Part shown: piece by piece, positions 1,271 to 10,470 of the stretch | How the letters are laid out: each line of letters opens with the position of its first letter | Numbering within the stretch: the first letter of the stretch is position 1 | Source of the DNA: an uncultured Deinococcales bacterium | Lineage (GTDB): Bacteria; Deinococcota; Deinococci; Deinococcales; JAAFIG01 | Length of the DNA stretch: 10,955 bases | Assembly: GCA_964244895.1 (NCBI GenBank) | Contig: CAXTKV010000109.1 | Coordinates: 6,298-17,252, forward strand | Reading direction: 5' to 3' | Program-made: the position numbers and the translations under genes | The notes under the pieces: generated by a model | Database searches by the model: none | Seen by the model: the letters and a program-made list of their open reading frames with translations, nothing else | Told to the model about the DNA's origin: nothing

Positions 1271-1336
1271 CGGTCTACCCAGCGCGACGACAGTGGTTGA
1301 TGTTAGGGATGAATATCATCAATCGCACACACGGGA

Positions 1337-1390
1337 AACACCGTCCAGGACAGTGTTATTTGCGCCACAATTCTCGCGTGCAGGATGGTC
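1337..1390 (-). repeat. Bipartite palindromic element, copy A (inverted orientation)
   Basis: Full site AACACCGTCC-A-GGACAGTGTT at 1337-1357 (centre 1347). Degenerate half-site on the minus strand, GACCATCC-T-GCACGCG, at 1375-1390 (centre 1382). Spacing 35. Confidence 0.8.
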
Positions 1391-1488
1391 TTTTTCTGGG
1401 AACCCGACTGGCTCGAGCGAGTTTGATTCACGCGTCGGCGCGACTTCGCGGGGCCGCTCAGGACTCACCTCAACTGAGGTCGTTCGGG

Positions 1489-1494
1489 TAGGCT
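1489..1494 (+). promoter_or_regulatory. -10 element TAGGCT of leaderless promoter
   Basis: TAGGCT-ggctccc-GTG(1502), with no SD. Confidence 0.65.
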
Positions 1495-1501
1495 GGCTCC
1501 C

Positions 1502-2617
1502 GTGAAAGCCGCCCTCGTATCGGTTTGTGTGATCGCCCTCGCGTGCGCCAGCGCCCTCGGTCAACCGGGCGCGAAGGGCAGCAGTTTCGGGCAGCCGGAC
1601 TTGACCCCGATTTTAGAGCGGGTGCGCGCCAGTTACGGCTTGCCGAGCCTGACGGCGGTGCTGGTCGAGGGCGGCAAGGTCGTGTCCAACGCGGTCGTGG
1701 GTGAACGCGCCATCGGCAGCGGCGTGTCGGTCACATTAACCGATCAGTACCAGCTCGGCAGCATCTCCAAGAGCTTCACCGCGACCGTGATCGCCAGGCT
1801 GGTCGAACAGGGCAAGTTGCGCTGGAATATGACCCTCGAAGAACTCCTTCCGGACATGAAAATACGAGACGCGTACAAATCCGTGACGCTCGAGATGCTG
1901 CTCTACCACTTCGCGGGATTCCCGGCGGATGTCAAGAACAAGAGCGTCTACGACTGGAACCTCGAGCCGGGCGCGGCCCGCAAAAAATACCTCGAGCTCG
2001 CACTGGTGAGCGTTCCCGAATTCAAACCCGGTGAGATGGTGGCGTATTCCAACATCGGGTACGTGATCGCCAGCCTGATCGCGGAACGCGCGGGCGGAAA
2101 GCCGTGGGATGCGCTGGTGCGCGAGATCGTGCTGGAGCCGTTGGGCATGAACTGCGGTTTCGGCGTGATCTTTCCAGCCCTGACCAACCCGCACCCGCAC
2201 GCCATCAAAGATGGGGGCGCGCAGGCGCTGGAACCCGCGGCGGGGAACGGCAACTCGCCCGTGCTGAACGGCGCGGACAACCTGCGCTGCAGCATGGGCG
2301 ATCTGGGTCTGTACCTGGCGGCGCACCTGGAAGGCGAACGCGGGCGGGACGGCATCCTCAGGAGCCAGACGTTCAAGTTTCTGCACCGCGCCCGCGCCGA
2401 TGGCGGTCAGGGCATCCGCGCGGCGCTCGGCTGGTTTATTTTTCCGGACGGCGAGATCTGGCACAACGGCAGCAACACCCTGAATTACGCCGAGATGATC
2501 CTGCTGCCCCGTCAGGACGCCGCCATCGCCGTGGCCACCAACGCCGCCGGGGGCGGAGCGGAGGCTCGGGCCGTGGCCGAGGTCTTCGAGGCGATCGAAG
2601 CGCTCGTGCCGCGCTAA
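1502..2617 (+). CDS. Exported serine hydrolase, beta-lactamase class C/AmpC-like family
   Basis: 371 aa with a signal peptide. SxxK (GSISKSF), YxN (YSNIGY), HxG (WHNGS) and the LLYHFAGF family motif are present. Confidence 0.9.
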   Translation: MKAALVSVCVIALACASALGQPGAKGSSFGQPDLTPILERVRASYGLPSLTAVLVEGGKVVSNAVVGERAIGSGVSVTLTDQYQLGSISKSFTATVIARLVEQGKLRWNMTLEELLPDMKIRDAYKSVTLEMLLYHFAGFPADVKNKSVYDWNLEPGAARKKYLELALVSVPEFKPGEMVAYSNIGYVIASLIAERAGGKPWDALVREIVLEPLGMNCGFGVIFPALTNPHPHAIKDGGAQALEPAAGNGNSPVLNGADNLRCSMGDLGLYLAAHLEGERGRDGILRSQTFKFLHRARADGGQGIRAALGWFIFPDGEIWHNGSNTLNYAEMILLPRQDAAIAVATNAAGGGAEARAVAEVFEAIEALVPR

Positions 2618-2618
2618 A

Positions 2619-2666
2619 AACACTGTCCTGGACGCAAAAAAAGAACGCCGTGCTGGACGGTGTTCT
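2619..2666 (+). repeat. Bipartite palindromic element, copy B (between convergent genes)
   Basis: Half-site AACACTGTCC-T-GGACGCA at 2619-2636 (centre 2629). Full site AGAACGCCGTGC-T-GGACGGTGTTCT at 2642-2666 (centre 2654). Spacing 25. The A-tract at 2636-2642 could serve as a U-tract for minus-strand termination. Confidence 0.9.
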
Positions 2667-2678
2667 CGAGCTTCGCGC

Positions 2679-3158
2679 TCAGTCGGCGCTGCCGATCTCG
2701 CCGCAGGCCACGCGCGCCCGATCGGTCTTGATCAGCACGGTGTGACCGATGACCGAATTCGGGCCGGGGGCGATGGTCAGGCGCGCGTTCAGGGTCGAGA
2801 TGATCTCGGAGCCGCTCGCGCCGACCACGAAATCCTCGAGGTTGCCCATCTGGCCTTTGAACTGATCGCCCGCCGCCGCGAAGGTCGGGCTGTTGTTGCA
2901 ATCACTGCCCGCGTGAATGGCGCTCAGGTACTTGCCGGGTTGAAAACCCACCACCCGCACGATGGTGCGCAATCCGCCCGCCGTCTCCGCGAAGGTGACC
3001 GTACCGACGTTCTTGCCGGACGGATCGATCAGCGATGCCGCAGCGGTCTTCCCGGTAATGCCGGACGCGTTGGCGGGTTGGGTGGCGGGCTTTGCGGCTG
3101 GCGCGCAGGCCGCCATGGCGAACATCGTGACCGCGAGCAACGGTGTCAATCGGTTCAT
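2679..3158 (-). CDS. Cu/Zn superoxide dismutase-fold lipoprotein with degenerate metal ligands
   Basis: ATG at 3158 preferred because TAGCTT lies 7 nt upstream; 159 aa. Lipobox-like MAAC. SOD_Cu motifs GTVTF, IHAGSDC, FAAAG, GNL, SVIGHTVLI and RVACGEI. Confidence 0.85.
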   Translation of the reverse strand: MNRLTPLLAVTMFAMAACAPAAKPATQPANASGITGKTAAASLIDPSGKNVGTVTFAETAGGLRTIVRVVGFQPGKYLSAIHAGSDCNNSPTFAAAGDQFKGQMGNLEDFVVGASGSEIISTLNARLTIAPGPNSVIGHTVLIKTDRARVACGEIGSAD

Positions 3159-3165
3159 GGACTTC

Positions 3166-3171
3166 AAGCTA
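3166..3171 (-). promoter_or_regulatory. -10 element TAGCTT of leaderless promoter
   Basis: Minus strand reads TAGCTT-gaagtcc-ATG(3158). Confidence 0.55.
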
Positions 3172-3241
3172 GACGCCGTATCTGAGTACAGGGTCGGGAA
3201 TAGATGATATTTCTCAGCAAGAACCTAACCGTGAAACGCGG

Positions 3242-3294
3242 CTGCTCGAGCCGCTGGAATCTACCCCGTCAACGGATTCCAGCGGCTCGAGCAG
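3242..3294. repeat. Perfect 20-bp inverted repeat (hairpin/cruciform), 13-nt loop
   Basis: CTGCTCGAGCCGCTGGAATC (3242-3261) and its reverse complement GATTCCAGCGGCTCGAGCAG (3275-3294). Confidence 0.9.
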
Positions 3295-3296
3295 GC

Positions 3297-3347
3297 AACA
3301 CCGTCCGGGACGCATCTTTAAGAACACCGTCCTGGACGGTGTTCTTA
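3297..3347 (+). repeat. Bipartite palindromic element, copy C (best preserved)
   Basis: Half-site AACACCGTCC-G-GGACGCA at 3297-3314 (centre 3307). Perfect palindrome TAAGAACACCGTCC-T-GGACGGTGTTCTTA at 3319-3347 (centre 3333). Spacing 26. Confidence 0.95.
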
Positions 3348-3351
3348 TTTT

Positions 3352-5436
3352 TTATGGGCCGAACGGTTGCGTCCAGATCGGCAATTCCAGACTGAAACGG
3401 CTGCCGCGTCCAGCTTCGCTTTCGGCGTCGAGCGTGCCGCCCATGGCTTCCAGCAGTTCGCGGGCGAGGGAAAGGCCCAGCCCGGCGCCGCCCGTGGTGC
3501 GCGCGCGGCTGGCATCGGTGCGGTAAAAGGGCTCGAAGATCCGATCCAAGTCCGATTGGTCAATCCCGATGCCGGTGTCCAGCACGCTCAACCGCACGCG
3601 ATCACCGATGGTTTCGGCTTCCAGGCGCACCAGCCCGCCTTCGGGCGTGTACTTGAGGGCGTTCTGCACCAGATTCACCACGGCCTGCGTCAGGCGCTGA
3701 CGGTCGGCGCGCACGCGCGGCAGGTGCTCCGGGATGGCGTCCAGCAGCGTGATGCGTCCAGCTTCGGCCACGGGTTGCAGGCTGCGCGCCAGCGAGCGCA
3801 GCAGTTCGCCGGGATCCACCGCCTCGAGGCGCACGTCGAGCTGTTTCAGGTCGGCTCGAGAGAGCGTAAAAAGATCCTCGACGAGTCGCTCGAGCCGCGC
3901 GACTTCCGTTTGTAAAACGCGGCGCACGTCGTCCTGGACGGACTCACCGCGCAGTTCAGCGCTTTCCAGGTGGGCGCGCATGACGGTCAACGGGGTGCGC
4001 AATTCGTGAGAGGCGCTGGCGGTCAAGCGCCGGTTGGCGCGCAGCAAGGATTCGACGGTGGTTTTCTCGCGCCCGAGGGCTTCGAGGTTGTGTTCCAACC
4101 GATCCGCCATCGCGTTCCAGCCGACACCCAATCGCGCCACCTCGTCTTCGCCCTCGACGGGCACGCGCACGCCCCAGCGACCAGCTTCGAGGGATTGCGA
4201 TCCGGCCAGCAAATTCTCGAGCGGCCCGGTCAGGCGGCGCGCCGTCAGGTAGCCCAGAAACCCGAGCGCCGCGAAGATCGGCAGAAAACTCTGTGAGAGC
4301 GTGTCCAGCACCAACGTCAGGTCGTGCGCGAGCTGTGAAACCACGTCCGAGAGCGGCGCGCTCGAGGGACTGGCCGGGCGCAGAACCGCCGCGATCACCC
4401 AGCGCCGCGACAGTCCGGGTACGTCCGGTTCATCCGCGAAGGCCGGGCAGCCCGCCAGCACCTCGTTGCCGATCACCGTGGCGCGGCAGCGTCCAGCGGC
4501 GTTGGCGTTCAGCACGTCCGCCCAAAGGGTTCTGAAGGTTTCCGGCAGCGGCCCGACCTCGAAGCGCGAGGGTCGGCTCGAGGCGATCACCTGAGCGTAA
4601 GGGCTGAGGATCAACGCGGTGCGTCCCGGCCCACCGACGGGTAATACGTCCATGTCGGGATCGGGTTCGATCACGCGCGGGCGGGGTCGGTTGACACCGC
4701 GCCGCAAGCTCTGCATCAACTGGCGCACCGCGTCGTCGTCCAGTCCCAGTTGCAGGGTCGGGGTGAAGGTCAGCGCCAGGTCTCGGGCCTCGCGCAGGGC
4801 CTGCCCGGTCAGGCTGCGGGACGGAGCGCGCACCAGCGACACCAGGCCGGGCAGCACGGCCACCAGCGCGCTGGCCAGCACGCCGCCGCCGAGGGCCAAC
4901 GCCGTCAATCGCCAGCGTAGACTGCGCCGTCCCTCGAGCCAGACCGCGCGGTACGAGTACGCGAACACGAAGCGCAGCGTGGCCGTCAAGACCAGCGCGT
5001 TCAAGCCCGTGCCCAGGAATTGTTGCGGGTCGGGGGCGGACAGCGCCTGAAATTCAAAGAACGGGCGCTCCGGCGGAATCAAGCGCGCCAGTTCCCCGCC
5101 CAGCGCGGCGAAGCCCAGTCCGGCCAGCGCACCGAACAGCGGAACGCGGGCCACGCGCCAGACGACGTGGCCGCGCGATGGTCGGAGCCGCAAGGCTCCC
5201 AGAAACCAGAGCGCGTGCTCACCGATGAAGGCCAGCAGTTCCGGCCACGGTGTGGGCACGAAGCGTTGCGTCCACATCAACGCCAGCGCCTGCAAGACCA
5301 GCGCGACCAGCAGCACTTCCAGGAGTGCCCTAGGGAACGGAGCGGAGTAGAAAATCCGGTGCGCCGCGCGACGAAGCCAGGTTGGCTCCTTCTCGAGCCT
5401 GAAGCCGGGGTGGGTTGAGGCTGGCTCGGGAATCAA
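3352..5436 (-). CDS. Membrane sensor histidine kinase (multi-TM N-terminus, extracytoplasmic domain, HAMP, HisKA, HATPase_c)
   Basis: H-box SHELRTPLT, N-box NLVQNALKY, G1 DTGIGI, F-box IFEPFYR, G2 GAGLGL and HAMP EDEVARLG..WNAMA. The TTG start is uncertain. Confidence 0.93.
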   Translation of the reverse strand: MIPEPASTHPGFRLEKEPTWLRRAAHRIFYSAPFPRALLEVLLVALVLQALALMWTQRFVPTPWPELLAFIGEHALWFLGALRLRPSRGHVVWRVARVPLFGALAGLGFAALGGELARLIPPERPFFEFQALSAPDPQQFLGTGLNALVLTATLRFVFAYSYRAVWLEGRRSLRWRLTALALGGGVLASALVAVLPGLVSLVRAPSRSLTGQALREARDLALTFTPTLQLGLDDDAVRQLMQSLRRGVNRPRPRVIEPDPDMDVLPVGGPGRTALILSPYAQVIASSRPSRFEVGPLPETFRTLWADVLNANAAGRCRATVIGNEVLAGCPAFADEPDVPGLSRRWVIAAVLRPASPSSAPLSDVVSQLAHDLTLVLDTLSQSFLPIFAALGFLGYLTARRLTGPLENLLAGSQSLEAGRWGVRVPVEGEDEVARLGVGWNAMADRLEHNLEALGREKTTVESLLRANRRLTASASHELRTPLTVMRAHLESAELRGESVQDDVRRVLQTEVARLERLVEDLFTLSRADLKQLDVRLEAVDPGELLRSLARSLQPVAEAGRITLLDAIPEHLPRVRADRQRLTQAVVNLVQNALKYTPEGGLVRLEAETIGDRVRLSVLDTGIGIDQSDLDRIFEPFYRTDASRARTTGGAGLGLSLARELLEAMGGTLDAESEAGRGSRFSLELPIWTQPFGP

Positions 5437-5467
5437 AACGGGTTGCTCGAGCTTCGGGGCGGGTTGT

Positions 5468-6172
5468 TCAGCCTTCGAGGCGATAACCCACCCCCCAGAC
5501 GCTGACCACGCGCTCGCCTTCTTGCGAGAGTTTGCGGCGCAAGCGCACGACGGTCGTGTCCACCACGCGATCCGATCCCTCGTAGGCCGGGCCCCAGATG
5601 TGTTCCAGCAAGTAATCGCGGCTGAAAGTGCGTCCGGGCTGGCGAATCAACATCAACAAAAGGTCGTACTCGCGCGGGGTCAGGTCGGTGGTGTGCCCCT
5701 CGACGCGCACCGCGCGGGCTTCGGGGTCGATCTGGATCGCACCGATCCGCACGGGTTCCCGAGAAATTTCCAGGGTTTCGCGCAGCAGTTGCACGCGGCG
5801 CAGCATCGCCCGGACGCGCGCCACGAGTTCCTTGAGGCTGAAGGGTTTGGTCAGGTAATCGTCCGCGCCGACTTCCAGGCCCAGCACCCGATCCGATTCC
5901 TCGGCGCGGGCGGTCAGCATCAGGATCGGCACGCTGGAGCGCGTCCCGGACGGGTTGTTCGGTGTCGAACGCAGCACCCTGGCGACTTCCAGGCCGTCCA
6001 CGCCGGGCAGCATCAGGTCCAGCACGATCAGGTCGAACATTTCGCGGGCGGTTCGCTCGAGCGCCTCGCGCCCGTCGGTGGAGAGACGCACCTCGAAGCC
6101 TTCGCTTTCCAGGTGGCGCGTCAGCACGCTGCCCAACTCGCGTTCGTCCTCGACCAGGAGCAGTTTCGTCAC
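5468..6172 (-). CDS. OmpR/PhoB-family DNA-binding response regulator
   Basis: Receiver motifs LLVEDE, LIVLDLMLPG, LMLTAR and DDYLTKPF. Winged helix LTPREYDLL..., VWGVGYRL. Lies directly upstream of the kinase. Confidence 0.96.
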   Translation of the reverse strand: MTKLLLVEDERELGSVLTRHLESEGFEVRLSTDGREALERTAREMFDLIVLDLMLPGVDGLEVARVLRSTPNNPSGTRSSVPILMLTARAEESDRVLGLEVGADDYLTKPFSLKELVARVRAMLRRVQLLRETLEISREPVRIGAIQIDPEARAVRVEGHTTDLTPREYDLLLMLIRQPGRTFSRDYLLEHIWGPAYEGSDRVVDTTVVRLRRKLSQEGERVVSVWGVGYRLEG

Positions 6173-6178
6173 GGGATC

Positions 6179-6184
6179 ATTCTA
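6179..6184 (-). promoter_or_regulatory. -10 element TAGAAT of leaderless promoter for the two-component operon
   Basis: Minus strand reads TAGAAT-gatccc-GTG(6172). Confidence 0.7.
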
Positions 6185-6231
6185 CGGTTTGGAACCAGGA
6201 AAACCGTGAGCCATCGCGTTCTAGAGCCTTC

Positions 6232-6249
6232 AGAACGCCCTCCAGGACG
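6232..6249 (+). repeat. Degenerate solo half-site of the palindromic element
   Basis: AGAACGCCCTCC-A-GGACG versus consensus AGAACACCGTCCNGGACG (2 mismatches). No clear partner site. Confidence 0.5.
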
Positions 6250-6389
6250 AAGAATTGTGTTTTCTGGAATTCAGTCCAAAACCCGAGCGCACGCCGCACG
6301 CCAGCCGATCCCGAGCTGTCGAATCGAGATGTTGGCTCGGGTCGGGTTCCGGCGTCCCACCGGGCAATTCTGGGTGGGCTTGCGCGGGG

Positions 6390-6448
6390 ACACCGTCCCA
6401 GACGCAATTCCTTCGGATAAGAAGGACACCGTCCTGGACGGTGTTCTT
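6390..6448 (+). repeat. Bipartite palindromic element, copy D (upstream of dnaG)
   Basis: Half-site ACACCGTCC-C-AGACGCA at 6390-6406 (centre 6399). Full site AAGGACACCGTCC-T-GGACGGTGTTCTT at 6422-6448 (centre 6435). Spacing 36. Confidence 0.92.
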
Positions 6449-6478
6449 TCGTTTCAGGAAGTCGGGCTCAAAAGGGAT

Positions 6479-6519
6479 TAAGATGTCCACCTGACCGTCA
6501 CTTGACCGTCCGTGGGGAG
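6479..6519 (+). promoter_or_regulatory. Putative dnaG -10 (TAAGAT), 11-bp tandem repeat and Shine-Dalgarno (GGGGAG)
   Basis: TAAGAT at 6479-6484. CACCTGACCGT/CACTTGACCGT at 6488-6509. GGGGAG at 6514-6519, 5 nt before ATG 6525. Confidence 0.5.
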
Positions 6520-6524
6520 CCCGC

Positions 6525-8261
6525 ATGAAGGATGAGATTCGGCAACGACTCGACCTCCGAGAGATCGTCTCGGAGTACGTCGCGCTGAAACCGTCCGGGC
6601 CGAACAAGTGGAAGGGTTTAAGTCCGTTCAGCAAGGAAAAAACGCCCAGCTTCTACGTGAACGCCGCCAAGCAGGTCTACTACTGCTTTTCGACCAAACA
6701 GGGCGGCGATGTCTTCGATTTCATCATGAAGGTCGAGAACATCTCCTTCCGCGAGGCGATGGAAAAGCTCGCCCTGCGCGCGGGCGTGCAACTCGAGAGC
6801 TACAAGAGCGACGACAAACGCAAACGCGACCTGTATGAAGTCAACACGCTGGCGCTCGAGTTCTTCCGCAAGAATTTGCCGGGCTCCGAGGCGCTTTTCT
6901 ACCTCGAGCGGCGCGGCGTCAGCCCGGACATGATCGAAGCCTTCGGGCTGGGTTGGGCTCCGGCGGGCTACGACAACCTCCTGAAATTCGGCAAGGCCCG
7001 AAACATCTCTGAGCGCGAATTGCTCGAGGCCGGACTTCTGTCCGAATCCGCCGAGAACGGACGGATTTACGACCGCTTCCGCGCGCGCGTGATGTTCCCG
7101 ATCAAGGATTACCTGGGGCGCGTGATCGCCTTCGGCGGGCGCGTGCTGGACGACAGCAAACCCAAATACCTGAACAGCCCCGAAACCGAGGTCTTCAAGA
7201 AACACGACACGCTCTACGGCCTCGAGATGGCCCGCAAGCACATCCAGGAAACCGGCGACGCGGTCGTGGTCGAAGGTTACATGGACGTGATCGCCATGCA
7301 CCAGCACGGCTTTCACGGCGCGGTCGCCAGCCTGGGCACGGCGCTCACGCAGGATCACGCGCACCTGCTCTCGCGCCAGGGCGCGCGGCGGCTGGCGCTC
7401 CTGTTCGACAACGACCCGGCGGGGCAACGCGCCACGCTGGCCGGGCTGGATCAGGAAATCGGCAAGATGTTCCTGGTGCGCGCCGTGGTCGCACCGGGCG
7501 GCAAGGACGCCGCCGACATCCTGCTGGCGGGCGGGCGGGACGAACTGGCGGCGGCGCTGGCGGGCGGTTTGACTGAAGTTGAAGTGCGCCTGAACGCGGT
7601 GCTGGAAAAATTCGACGTGAATACCCTGGATGGCAAACGCGGCGCGCTCCAGGCGTTGCTGCCGCGCCTGCGCCCGCGCGATGTCTTCGATCCAGTCGCG
7701 CTCGATCTGCAACGCATGGTGATCGACCGGCTCGGCCTGGAACCCAAACGATTGGACGAACTGCTGAACGCCAGCAAACCCAACCCGCGATCCGGCACGT
7801 CCATAGACCGGATTCAGGTCTCGGGCCTGATGTCGCGCGGCGTGGGATCGGGTGATCGCGGCGAGATCCGGCTGGCGCAACTGCTGGTGCAGAACCCGTC
7901 GCTGACGGCCAAGCTGGACGGCGAGGCGCTGTTTGAAAATCCGTTGGTGATGGAGATCATCGCGGTCGCCCGCACCGCCACCACCAGCGACCAGATCTTA
8001 GAGCACTTCCGGGGTCGCCCGGAAGCCAGCATGCTCTTCGAGGGCCTGATGGACGGCCCCGAGGGTTCTCCCGGCCAAGACGAACTGGCCGTGGACGAGA
8101 TCAGTTCGCGCAAGCGCGAGGAATCCATGAAGCGCGAACTGGCCGCCACCAAAGCCAAACTCTCGAGCGTCACCAGCGACGAGCAGGTCGCGCTGTTGCG
8201 CCAGTGCAGCGAGTTGCAGCGCGGCATCGAGGCCGAACGCCGGTTGCGCCTGCGAAATTAG
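6525..8261 (+). CDS. dnaG: DNA primase
   Basis: 578 aa. N-terminal ZBD-like region (PF.KEKTPSF.V...YYCF...GGDVF), YDRFRARVMFPI, IAFGGR, PKYLNSPET, and Toprim motifs EGYMDV, ASLGTALT and FDNDPAG. Confidence 0.97.
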   Translation: MKDEIRQRLDLREIVSEYVALKPSGPNKWKGLSPFSKEKTPSFYVNAAKQVYYCFSTKQGGDVFDFIMKVENISFREAMEKLALRAGVQLESYKSDDKRKRDLYEVNTLALEFFRKNLPGSEALFYLERRGVSPDMIEAFGLGWAPAGYDNLLKFGKARNISERELLEAGLLSESAENGRIYDRFRARVMFPIKDYLGRVIAFGGRVLDDSKPKYLNSPETEVFKKHDTLYGLEMARKHIQETGDAVVVEGYMDVIAMHQHGFHGAVASLGTALTQDHAHLLSRQGARRLALLFDNDPAGQRATLAGLDQEIGKMFLVRAVVAPGGKDAADILLAGGRDELAAALAGGLTEVEVRLNAVLEKFDVNTLDGKRGALQALLPRLRPRDVFDPVALDLQRMVIDRLGLEPKRLDELLNASKPNPRSGTSIDRIQVSGLMSRGVGSGDRGEIRLAQLLVQNPSLTAKLDGEALFENPLVMEIIAVARTATTSDQILEHFRGRPEASMLFEGLMDGPEGSPGQDELAVDEISSRKREESMKRELAATKAKLSSVTSDEQVALLRQCSELQRGIEAERRLRLRN

Positions 8262-8316
8262 ACCGTCCCGGACGCGTTATTCTGAATCTAAAAAAGACCG
8301 TCCAGGACGGTGTTCT
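8261..8316 (+). repeat. Bipartite palindromic element, copy E (between convergent genes, overlapping both 3' ends)
   Basis: Half-site GACCGTCC-C-GGACGCG at 8261-8276 (centre 8269) begins in the dnaG stop codon. Full site GACCGTCC-A-GGACGGTGTTCT at 8296-8316 (centre 8304). Spacing 35. Confidence 0.9.
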
Positions 8317-9682
8317 CGAGCCAGGTGCGGGCACCCGAGCCGCCCAATCGCAGCAAGGTGGCGACGCACGCACCATCGAGCGGTTTGAGCGGGCCGTTCT
8401 GACTGGTCTTGTAGGCCGCCGTGCCGACGTAACCCGCCCCTTTCGGGCTTTTCGCGTCGAAGGTGCAGACCTGGATCGTGGCTGCACCCGCGATTTCCAG
8501 GGTGGCGCGGTTGGTTTTGGGATCGAAATAAAATGTGGCGTCCGCGCGGATCTTGCCGGTGGTGGCCGGGCCGGTCGGTCTAGCGTTGACCAGTCGCGTC
8601 AACGCCAGGTCGTAGCGGGTTTTGCCCAGGTCAACCATCCAGACCTGCCCGAGCGCGATGCGCGGCGGCCACGCAGCCAGGTTCGAGGACGCCGTACTCG
8701 AGGGTGAAGCTGGACTCGTTGGTGCAGCACTCGGGGGTGGGGTCGCAACGCTCGGGGTCGCCGCGGGCGCGGCGCTCGGGCCGCTCGAGAGCACCGCGTT
8801 GCAGGCCATGTTCGTCAACTCGAAGGCCGCGTTCGGATCGGCGCGCCGCACCACCGACCCGGTCATGACCGATCCAGCCAACGAACCCGCCGGGAACACG
8901 CAGGCCGTGATGGTCGTGCCGTCCGAGAGTTGCAGGATCGCGTTCCGCTCCTGCGGCGCGTAGTAAAAAAACGCGTCCAGGCTCGAGCCGCCACCGACCG
9001 GGGTGGCCGTGCCCGTCGGGTCGCCATCGGCGTCCGTGCCGTTCAATGCGACGTTCCACTCGCGCAATCCGGGAATCGTGACGCGCCACGTCTGACCGGA
9101 TTGCAACCGCACCCACGGCGAAACCGGAGGGGTGGTGTCGGGCGTCGGATTGAGGTTGATGCCCAGTTGCGCCAAAGGATCGAGGCTGGCGGCGCAAACG
9201 TTATCAATCGGTTTGAAACCCGCGTCGGATTTGGTGCGCGTGAAGGTCGCACCGAACATCGTTTCACCCTGAACGCTGCCCCGATCGAAGGTGCACAGCG
9301 TCGTGATTGACCCGTCCGTCAGCGCCAGGTACGCCTGATCGTCGGCGCGTTTGAAGTAAAAGAACGCCTGCTGATCCTTGATGTCCTTGGTTTGCGCGAC
9401 CGCCTTGCCGACCGGATCGCCGTCCGTATCGCGCCCGGTCAACTTCAATTCCCAGGTGCCGATGCCGTTGATCGTGATCACCCAGGTCTGGTTGAGCTCG
9501 AGCTTCGGTGGCCAGCCGATCGGCCCGGCGGGTGGCGCGGTCGGTGCTGGCGGTGTCTGCGCCAGGCCGACCGAGAAACTCAGAACTGCAATTGCCCCCA
9601 GTCGCGCGAGCGAAGACCGTCCTGCACGGCGTCTTCTGGATTCAGGCGAGCGGTCAGCGACGGTCTCAGCTCGATCAAACAT
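8288..9682 (-). CDS. Secreted hypothetical protein with three tandem ~108-aa beta-rich repeats
   Basis: 464 aa. Basic n-region plus hydrophobic segment ending GLA-Q. Repeats share Q.W, A.FY and two Cys, and are separated by Pro/Ala/Ser linkers. TAGGCT lies 7 nt upstream of the ATG. Confidence 0.85.
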   Translation of the reverse strand: MFDRAETVADRSPESRRRRAGRSSLARLGAIAVLSFSVGLAQTPPAPTAPPAGPIGWPPKLELNQTWVITINGIGTWELKLTGRDTDGDPVGKAVAQTKDIKDQQAFFYFKRADDQAYLALTDGSITTLCTFDRGSVQGETMFGATFTRTKSDAGFKPIDNVCAASLDPLAQLGINLNPTPDTTPPVSPWVRLQSGQTWRVTIPGLREWNVALNGTDADGDPTGTATPVGGGSSLDAFFYYAPQERNAILQLSDGTTITACVFPAGSLAGSVMTGSVVRRADPNAAFELTNMACNAVLSSGPSAAPAATPSVATPPPSAAPTSPASPSSTASSNLAAWPPRIALGQVWMVDLGKTRYDLALTRLVNARPTGPATTGKIRADATFYFDPKTNRATLEIAGAATIQVCTFDAKSPKGAGYVGTAAYKTSQNGPLKPLDGACVATLLRLGGSGARTWLENTVLDGLF

Positions 9683-9895: not shown

Positions 9896-10135
9896 ATGAA
9901 GACTGCGATTAGCATCCCCGACGAGACCTTCGAGGCCGCAGAACGCCTCGCCAAGCGCCAGGGTCGTTCGAGAAGCGAACTGTACGCCGCCGCCGTGCGG
10001 GAATATTTGAAACGCAACGGTCACGACGATCTGACGGCCCGCATTGACGCCGCCATAGAGGGTCAGGAGACCCGACCCGACGCGTTCTTCCAGGCGCTCT
10101 CGGCGCGAACCCTCGGTTCGGCAGAAGACTGGTGA
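9896..10135 (+). CDS. Ribbon-helix-helix (CopG/ChpI/MazE-like) antitoxin
   Basis: MKTAISIPD...AERLAKRQGRSRSELYAAAVREYL fits the RHH pattern. 79 aa, with a GTGA overlap with the toxin gene. Confidence 0.88.
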   Translation: MKTAISIPDETFEAAERLAKRQGRSRSELYAAAVREYLKRNGHDDLTARIDAAIEGQETRPDAFFQALSARTLGSAEDW

Positions 10136-10470
10136 GGCGCGGAGAGATCTGGTGGGCGGAATTACCCGATCCTTCCGGCTCCGGCCCCGGAGGTCGCAGA
10201 CCCGCACTGGTGATCTCGAGTGATGGGTACAACCGGAGCGGTATTCAGACGGTCGTGATCGCGGTCATGACCTCGAATACGAAGGCCGCGAACTTCCCCG
10301 GCAATGTCTGGGTCTCGGGCGAGGAGTCGGGCCTCTCGAGAGACAGCGTGGTCAACGTTACGCAACTGTTCACGCTCGATAAGCGCGACCTCAGCGAGCG
10401 CGTCGGTGAACTGGCGCTCGACAGCCTGGATTTGGTGGATCTCGGTCTGCGAACGGTATTAGAGCTGTAG
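10132..10470 (+). CDS. mazF: PemK/MazF-family endoribonuclease toxin
   Basis: MRRGEIWWAEL..P.GS.PG.RRPALVIS.D.YN, V.IAVMTSN and SGL.RDSVVNVTQLFTLDK. Confidence 0.93.
   Translation: MRRGEIWWAELPDPSGSGPGGRRPALVISSDGYNRSGIQTVVIAVMTSNTKAANFPGNVWVSGEESGLSRDSVVNVTQLFTLDKRDLSERVGELALDSLDLVDLGLRTVLEL

Follow-up and report, generated by a model that had tools for sequence, protein, structure and literature searches.

Helically phased pairs of a palindromic site throughout the core genome of an uncultured Deinococcales bacterium

A stretch of 10,955 nucleotides from an uncultured Deinococcales bacterium, here called the window (contig C109, positions 6298-17252), carries five copies, elements A to E, of a paired palindromic site, and the paired-site unit is the most abundant word family in the genome. 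The assembly comprises 5.12 Mb in 328 unordered contigs and is 91% complete. The genes of the window are ordinary ones for a GH114 protein, a beta-lactamase-family hydrolase, a Cu/Zn superoxide dismutase (SOD)-like protein, a two-component pair and DnaG, together with genes for a secreted protein without a family, a ribbon-helix-helix (RHH)/PemK pair and DprA. The closest DnaG proteins, from two Deinococcales metagenome-assembled genomes, are 71-72% identical to that of the window, and no further genome of the same genus was present among the genomes searched.

Paired sites in the window and across the genome

Element A (1335..1394) combines a full site centred at 1347 with a half site at 1382, 35 bp away, in the divergent gap between the GH114 gene and the serine beta-lactamase-family gene. 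Element B (2617..2666), with a half site at 2629 and a full site at 2654 (25 bp), lies in a convergent gap, and its first base is also the final base of the upstream stop codon. The half site (3307) and perfect full site (3333) of element C (3295..3345) are 26 bp apart and are found a few bases past the stop codon of the histidine-kinase gene, on the minus strand, and upstream of the Cu/Zn SOD-like gene. Element D (6387..6447), in the divergent gap that separates the response-regulator gene from dnaG, joins a weaker site (6399) to a full site (6435) at a spacing of 36 bp. Element E (8257..8316; half site 8269, full site 8304, 35 bp) covers the dnaG stop codon and also the last codons of a convergent minus-strand open reading frame, that of the secreted protein, which ends at 8288; its full site encodes those codons (8288-8316). 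The five distances had been given in a preliminary description of the window, and all are exact. An Rfam search of the window returned one chance match, outside the elements, and none on them. Contigs of a related strain (run X1, about 92-94% identical), a small sample, keep the gene order across elements A-E; one-base indels inside the elements in these contigs were left unused because other copies of the repeat map there.

A weight matrix was built from single sites, without spacing information, and applied at a threshold score of at least 12. It gave 7,083 oriented matches in the genome as compared to 82 in the reversed genome, and these correspond to 5,292 distinct sites that group into 1,911 pairs, 1,351 singles and 39 larger arrays. 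Many of the "single" sites have a weak partner at the same distances. Among adjacent sites 15-60 bp apart, 1,773 of 2,007 are separated by exactly 25, 26, 35 or 36 bp. The 24-27-bp band holds 1,008 pairs (mean 25.14) and the 34-37-bp band 850 (mean 35.24), a difference of 10.1 bp that bears out the proposal, made from the five window elements, of two classes about 10 bp apart. The histogram predicted at that time was realised in part: the peaks at 25 and 35 bp are present, and the one near 46 bp is absent, with only 4 pairs at 44-51 bp. Where troughs had been predicted, at 30 and 41 bp, there are instead small peaks (63 pairs at 29-31 bp and 59 at 40-43 bp), which partly reflect other orientations; the actual troughs are at 27-29, 32-33, 38-39 and 44-51 bp.

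The spacers are unrelated, as had been reported for the window. Distinct sequences make up 777 of 833 spacers in the 25-bp class, 577 of 577 at 35 bp and 215 of 215 at 36 bp, and nearest-neighbour identity barely exceeds a second-order Markov null (10.31 vs 10.13 of 12, 17.02 vs 16.6 of 22, and 17.22 vs 16.89 of 23 positions). Since nearly all spacers are unique and form no families beyond this null, a single ancestral 10-bp indel does not explain the two classes.

The site itself is a pseudo-palindrome of about 21-25 bp, with ACCGT at positions -7..-3, a mirrored ACG at +3..+5 and a variable centre, flanked by AA at -10/-9 and by T-rich positions at +9/+10. Conservation is mostly 0.85-0.99 at -7..-3 and +3..+5 and 0.83-0.89 at the AA of -10/-9, a palindromic, dimer-type profile of the kind seen in matS and parS sites. 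The stronger half-sites of a pair face outward, and the spacer, first T-rich and then A-rich, is the overlap of two inner flanks. CTCGAG adjoins 10-18% of the outer arms of pairs. This word is strongly over-represented here (4.3 per kb), and mostly at 4.5-8 per kb in family relatives (L001, L003, L081-L099); the excess is HIP1-like, common to the family and independent of the paired sites.

Inheritance, placement and even coverage

The motif is restricted to one genus-level lineage. It has 1,166 exact matches in this genome versus 0-3 in each of 60 relatives, and the paired pattern occurs in 4 of 363 other genomes of the phylum, once or twice in each. No analogous high-copy family was found in 946 kb of family sequence, where there were 28 matches, none with a partner at 25 or 35 bp. 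The pattern was present in 16 metagenome stretches, four of which belong to congeners at 75-84% nucleotide identity. Orthologous pairs in the congeners have spacings of 26/25, 25/25, 26/26 (inside a gene) and 36/35 bp with diverged spacers, and gene order is kept around those congener loci that could be compared. These comparisons of orthologous places show the pairs to be vertically inherited. In this genome, most contigs of at least 10 kb carry 3-6 pairs per 10 kb. Another 52 contigs (540 kb) have fewer than one pair per 10 kb and, where inspected, consist of insertion-sequence, CRISPR or plasmid-like content. Accessory contigs are without pairs, and sites are biased to the core genome at about 1 per kb, also in coding DNA, which is the density of DNA uptake sequences (DUS) and uptake signal sequences (USS).

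Elements occupy 477 of 592 convergent gaps, 1,451 of 2,487 tandem gaps and 365 of 610 divergent gaps. Tandem pairs often lie no more than 20 bp from the stop codon (303/567 and 210/459), and short divergent gaps are avoided: below 120 bp, only 1 of 52 is occupied, as compared to 133 of 205 convergent ones. The median distance from pair to pair is 1.8 kb, and there is about one pair per 2 kb. Their spacing is more even than in a class- and length-matched null (coefficient of variation 0.606 vs 0.720+-0.018), with 5.7% rather than 12.1% of pair-to-pair gaps below 800 bp. Joint occupancy of adjacent gaps also falls below expectation, in a test restricted to gaps of 60-450 bp because the gene caller missed AT-rich genes; the odds ratio is 0.44 below 800 bp, 0.57 at 800-1,200 bp and 0.95 at 1,200-1,800 bp, and beyond that distance it is 0.61, which is not significant (p 0.18). 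The mutual repulsion of pairs extends to about 1.2 kb. The gaps between them are filled by strong intragenic sites (n=76), at a median of 1,146 bp from the nearest pair versus 770 bp in length-matched controls, and weak intragenic sites display no such shift (617 vs 624 bp).

Copies inside core genes exceed expectation, with 423 sites as compared to 168-186 after synonymous shuffling, an excess of about 240 of the 5,292 sites, and with 17 intragenic pairs at 25, 26, 35 or 36 bp as compared to 2 in five pooled shuffles. Alignments of the pair-bearing PheT (36 bp) and MiaA (34 bp) with five relatives each contain no gaps; in a 3-hydroxyacyl-CoA dehydrogenase (34 bp, five relatives) and NuoG (25 bp, three relatives) protein lengths differ by a few residues at most. 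Because the alignments of the four enzymes are gap-free or nearly so, their pairs were written into existing codons. These four copies arose by substitution, including amino-acid changes, and transposition does not explain them.

Several other features of the window and of the genomes compared are recorded here. Two unpaired sites are present in the window, a plus-strand half site at 6232..6256 (centre 6244, score 16) and a degenerate full site at 9611..9635 (centre 9623, scores 21/20). Two weak intragenic sites, one in the histidine-kinase gene (3923..3947, plus strand, centre 3935, score 13) and one in the response-regulator gene (5935..5959, minus strand, centre 5947, score 12), may both be due to chance, as weak intragenic sites of this genome behave like background. 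The RHH antitoxin and PemK/MazF-type toxin pair (9896-10470) is probably accessory, because it is poorly covered in the related-strain contigs. A long perfect palindrome that includes the core word stands at a contig end (L111:2480-2611) and is possibly a hairpin end or an assembly artefact. An integrated element (C32:416-6321) comprises an integrase gene, an AAA-type Rep-like gene broken by an assembly gap, an excisionase-like gene and a few single sites. A few kb upstream of dnaG in two relatives are repeat clusters that we take to be DnaA-box-like and a palindrome pair that we take to be parS-like (L001:390-487 and 2209-2267; L003:411-507 and 2206-2266).

Alternative explanations

RNA hairpins at gene ends, acting as bidirectional terminators or mRNA stabilisers and possibly replacing Rho, would account for the half of tandem-gap pairs that closely follow a stop codon and for the high occupancy of convergent gaps. 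For the window elements, hairpins are predicted at -16 to -35 kcal/mol, and three of the full sites in the window resemble terminators by score. A rho gene was not found in the assembly, whereas 18 of 18 relatives have a match to it. However, a contig end here (C149, left end) truncates the gene located after rho in relatives, so that rho has probably just not been assembled; motifs of EF-Tu and S10 are missing as well. Compensatory pairing within the site was not detected (kappa at most 0.08), and a perfect 7-bp stem of its own is possible in only 126 of 3,268 paired sites. On the sense strand of tandem gaps there is no preference for G-U over A-C (669 vs 743; 619 vs 678), no orientation bias (full site downstream vs upstream, 148:139 and 150:132) and, in 565 and 459 tandem-gap pairs, no downstream T excess like the U-tract of intrinsic terminators. 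Hairpins have no need of loops fixed at 12-13 or 22-23 nt, and pairs are found in divergent gaps and inside essential genes too. We consider an RNA role very unlikely, in line with the preliminary description, which had disfavoured RNA and single-stranded DNA hairpins. A DNA-borne hairpin is envisaged in another explanation, by which the pairs are old REPINs, doublets of REPs (repetitive extragenic palindromes), or else non-autonomous elements of a similar kind, which an HUH transposase would have spread in the form of hairpins with two preferred lengths and which would have been retained afterwards; the phasing would then be the geometry of the enzyme or of a later host factor. The likeness to REPs, REPINs and bacterial interspersed mosaic elements with their RAYT transposases is considerable, as these are high-copy, lineage-specific extragenic palindromes, often after stop codons and in inverted doublets with variable spacers (available text of PMC3116915, PMC3733652 and PMC6006769; that of PMC3733652 names no Deinococcus or Thermus family), and the doublets here, at preferred distances, are likewise able to form a long hairpin. 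Arm covariation in the 25-bp class and the expansion of convergent gaps, both detailed below, also favour this origin, as does a Y1 transposase gene on an unrelated AT-rich contig (L101:981-1275) with two near-perfect doublets of similar core, at spacings of 25 and 27 bp, one immediately ahead of the start codon and the other within the gene, in frame. The doublets at this one locus may be due to chance, and the L101 protein has no match in this genome (best E 0.25); the 30 Y1 loci of relatives hold no copies of the pair. An intact RAYT-like gene is present in the genome (C12:40619-41188; L292:1620-2189; NF047646 E 6e-14, below the curated cut-off; missed by a Pfam Y1_Tnp search, which gave no match), but it has a different, GTAG-type REP, which occurs both upstream of the gene and, in frame, within it (8 matches on 6 contigs), and the nearest pair is about 1.4 kb away. 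A cognate RAYT flanked by pairs was not found in this 91% complete genome, from which a second gene could be missing. The pairs lack a GTAG or GGAG foot (no flank position has either above 2%), CGTC is confined to the core, at -5, and is not a terminal tag, and most sites have no stem of their own. They form no spacer families, and left-right flank pairs are absent from the 30 highest mutual-information pairs in any class, nor is there the target-site duplication or shared interior of a miniature inverted-repeat transposable element. REPIN doublets, at 71 and 110 bp in the accessible part of PMC3116915, commonly have compensatory changes and are placed randomly in the extragenic space of SBW25, whereas the doublets here have two distances one helical turn apart and are over-dispersed, those of the 35-bp class have no arm covariation, and insertion played no part in the origin of the intragenic copies of the four genes tested. 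The REPIN explanation is already weakened by these data, and we regard it as improbable.

The arms-plus-variable-centre layout would also suit a tyrosine-recombinase crossover site, with two arms round a 5-7-bp overlap and the partner site as an accessory element; the genome has 11 integrase-family matches, and the motif also occurs in integrase-bearing elements of the Thermaceae. There, however, it lies at the Rep end and not at the element ends, and thousands of live crossover sites would be expected to scramble the chromosome, yet gene order is kept across the window elements in the related strain and at the comparable congener loci. A serine resolvase was not found in the genome. The recombinase-type site that the preliminary description had allowed for is thus not upheld, and we give it hardly any weight. 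More serious, though still unlikely in our view, is uptake or recombination drive, in which the same recognition by two dimers would serve DNA uptake or recombination and not the nucleoid; a receptor or a protective "self" system would favour pair-bearing fragments, and sites would accumulate by molecular drive, as do Neisseria DUS. The density of about 1 site per kb, the core bias, the absence from accessory contigs and from recently acquired DNA, the gain inside genes, the even spacing and the frequent inverted pairs at gene ends all match what the available text of PMC2397512 reports for DUS of Neisseria and USS of Pasteurellaceae; like those, the motif is confined to one clade, and a DprA gene lies in the window. 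By the same partial source, a DUS is a single non-palindromic word, one copy of which suffices, and inverted pairs leave the efficacy of transformation unchanged, whereas here the unit is palindromic and fixed-phase pairing dominates. Only the small excess of sites noted above lies inside core genes, no comparable high-copy word is present in the sampled stretches of family relatives, and palindromic dimer geometry and promoter avoidance would point to a cytoplasmic protein. The family is REP-like in placement and DUS-like in density and history, and fails the defining tests of both. In the literature covered, which took in few subscription papers, such a family, or helically phased paired sites at such copy number, is not described.

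Candidate binding proteins and proposed role

On balance we think it somewhat probable that the pairs are double operators for a putative abundant homodimer of helix-turn-helix (HTH) type, bound as a phased pair and organising the chromosome. By comparison with the HTH dimer geometry of CRP-, Fis- and MarR-type sites, the conservation profile would fit an HTH homodimer in contact with two successive major grooves and with the minor grooves on either side. ACCGT at +-5 would be read by each dimer in the major grooves, and the AA/TT steps at +-9/10 in the minor grooves, with the central five bases left unread. Two such dimers, 2.4 or 3.4 turns apart and about 130-140 degrees round the helix from each other, would touch and bend the A/T-tract spacer. 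The reach of the dimer pair would end before about 46 bp, and the sharpness of this cut-off suggests direct contact between dimers. The bound complexes may act as loop anchors or as topological or transcriptional insulators, the least certain step of the model. Were coverage selected, a second pair within about 1.2 kb would add little and promoters would be avoided, and such selection would imply a structural role. Two protein dimers on double-stranded DNA, as proposed in the preliminary description, is the reading that survives our tests, with binding and cooperativity as its presumed components; it does not predict the slight excess of complementarity between 25-bp arms. The suggestion of a nucleoid-organising function gains new support from the even spacing of pairs.

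Candidates for the binder were sought among HU, ParB, Rep-type, DUF559, GIY-YIG and resolvase proteins and a basic 159-residue protein. Three HU-family genes are present (C10:5198-5500, C117:13596-13862 and C103:16593-16886); two sister-genus genomes also have three, without the motif, and the main HU has the same arm residues as in relatives (the two divergent paralogues fell outside this alignment). Most family genomes have two HU genes, and the sister genus three. The four ParB genes are common to relatives that lack the sites, and the basic 159-residue protein is found in 12 of 18 relatives, which likewise have none. This last protein (C258:1094-1573, L163) has a tail rich in lysine and alanine, the codon bias of highly expressed genes and no match in Pfam, and is itself a candidate for a nucleoid protein. 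Only generic HTH matches in this genome were obtained with the winged helix of the Thermaceae Rep, and DUF559 and GIY-YIG gave one match each, neither among the genes most densely flanked by sites.

A lead to the origin of the site comes from integrative elements of the Thermus family. In 9 of 9 such loci from 8 genomes, the core word of the paired site, its stronger arm flanked by AA/TT, recurs at and after the end of the Rep gene, an origin-like region, with one to six sites per element and, in 5 of the 9 loci, inverted pairs 39 bp apart. The Rep is of AAA type with a C-terminal winged helix, and its homologues are named from Thermus species. These elements (L151:8692-15417, L251-L263) encode an HTH_17 protein, a 312-residue protein that by eye looks primase-polymerase-like and has no Pfam match, the AAA/winged-helix Rep and an integrase, and have a row of GTGCAC-type repeats about 10-11 bp apart. 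Viral contigs gave no match to the pairs and contained no Rep or L101-type loci, and phage and plasmid records gave only partial, chance-level matches.

Several observations weigh against double operators for a dimeric protein. None of the candidates examined proved to be the binding protein, and no homologue of the Thermaceae-element Rep was found in the genome. In the 25-bp class the arms covary at mirror positions only, in divergent gaps too, with 13.51 of 16 bp complementary as compared to 13.04 in shuffled partners (+0.47, z=16). Protein binding alone does not predict this, and it may reflect occasional template-switch copying or a trace of origin rather than a selected function. Four of the five window elements fold better as RNA than their shuffles (z -4 to -6; element A, -1.35), which is expected of any inverted repeat. 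Placement after stop codons is also the pattern of REPs, and convergent gaps are expanded, as insertion would produce, with 0 of 41 below 40 bp here versus 20-50% in five relatives; because they are longer than in relatives, the intergenic copies may have come with added DNA. At a fifth orthologous place a 36-bp pair in the congener corresponds to a single site here. The intragenic pairs aligned with relatives are 4 of 38, hand-picked, and the gene calls come from a purpose-built model that missed some AT-rich foreign genes. Finally, uptake-sequence drive would account just as well for the even spacing and for the lack of pairs in accessory DNA.

Among known systems, the closest parallels in design are matS/MatP, parS/ParB, the Noc-binding site (NBS)/Noc and the SlmA-binding site (SBS)/SlmA, palindromic homodimer sites with a structural role that number in the tens and occupy one region of the chromosome. 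The present family shares the palindromic, homodimer-type site and a proposed role that is structural rather than regulatory, but its sites number in the thousands and are spread across the core genome as phased pairs. Two dimer sites with a spacing set by helical geometry are also known from lambda OR1-OR2, about 24 bp apart, and the NrdR boxes, 31-32 bp apart; in contrast to these few promoter operators, the pairs described here avoid short promoter gaps and crowd gene ends. The origin-like regions of the Thermus-family elements share the core word and its flanks, and differ in having few sites at another spacing and a Rep without a homologue in this genome.

A more ambitious proposal, which we put forward as possible but doubtful, is that the chromosome has a scaffold encoded in its sequence. 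Its phased double operators, about 1,900 in all and one in every 2 kb, would be bound by a putative tetrameric protein, maybe descended from the origin-binding winged helix of a Thermus-type element, and selection for coverage would have rewritten codons of PheT and MiaA where no intergenic space was near; this would exemplify an undescribed class of sequence-specific chromatin in bacteria, independently evolved. To our knowledge, bacterial nucleoid proteins are of two kinds, abundant ones that are loosely selective for sequence and sequence-specific ones that have tens of sites. A phased double site that is specific, recurs every 2 kb and is selected for even coverage would then represent a third nucleoid-protein design. 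It would offer a direct handle on how supercoil and loop domains are delimited, since the position of each site is known to the base and the rule for spacing allows one to predict which spacer mutants should fail. Were the uptake explanation true instead, the pairs would constitute a new uptake-sequence system outside the Proteobacteria. That an ordinary-looking REP family fails the tests of REPs also suggests that other "REP-like" families are worth checking for helical phasing.

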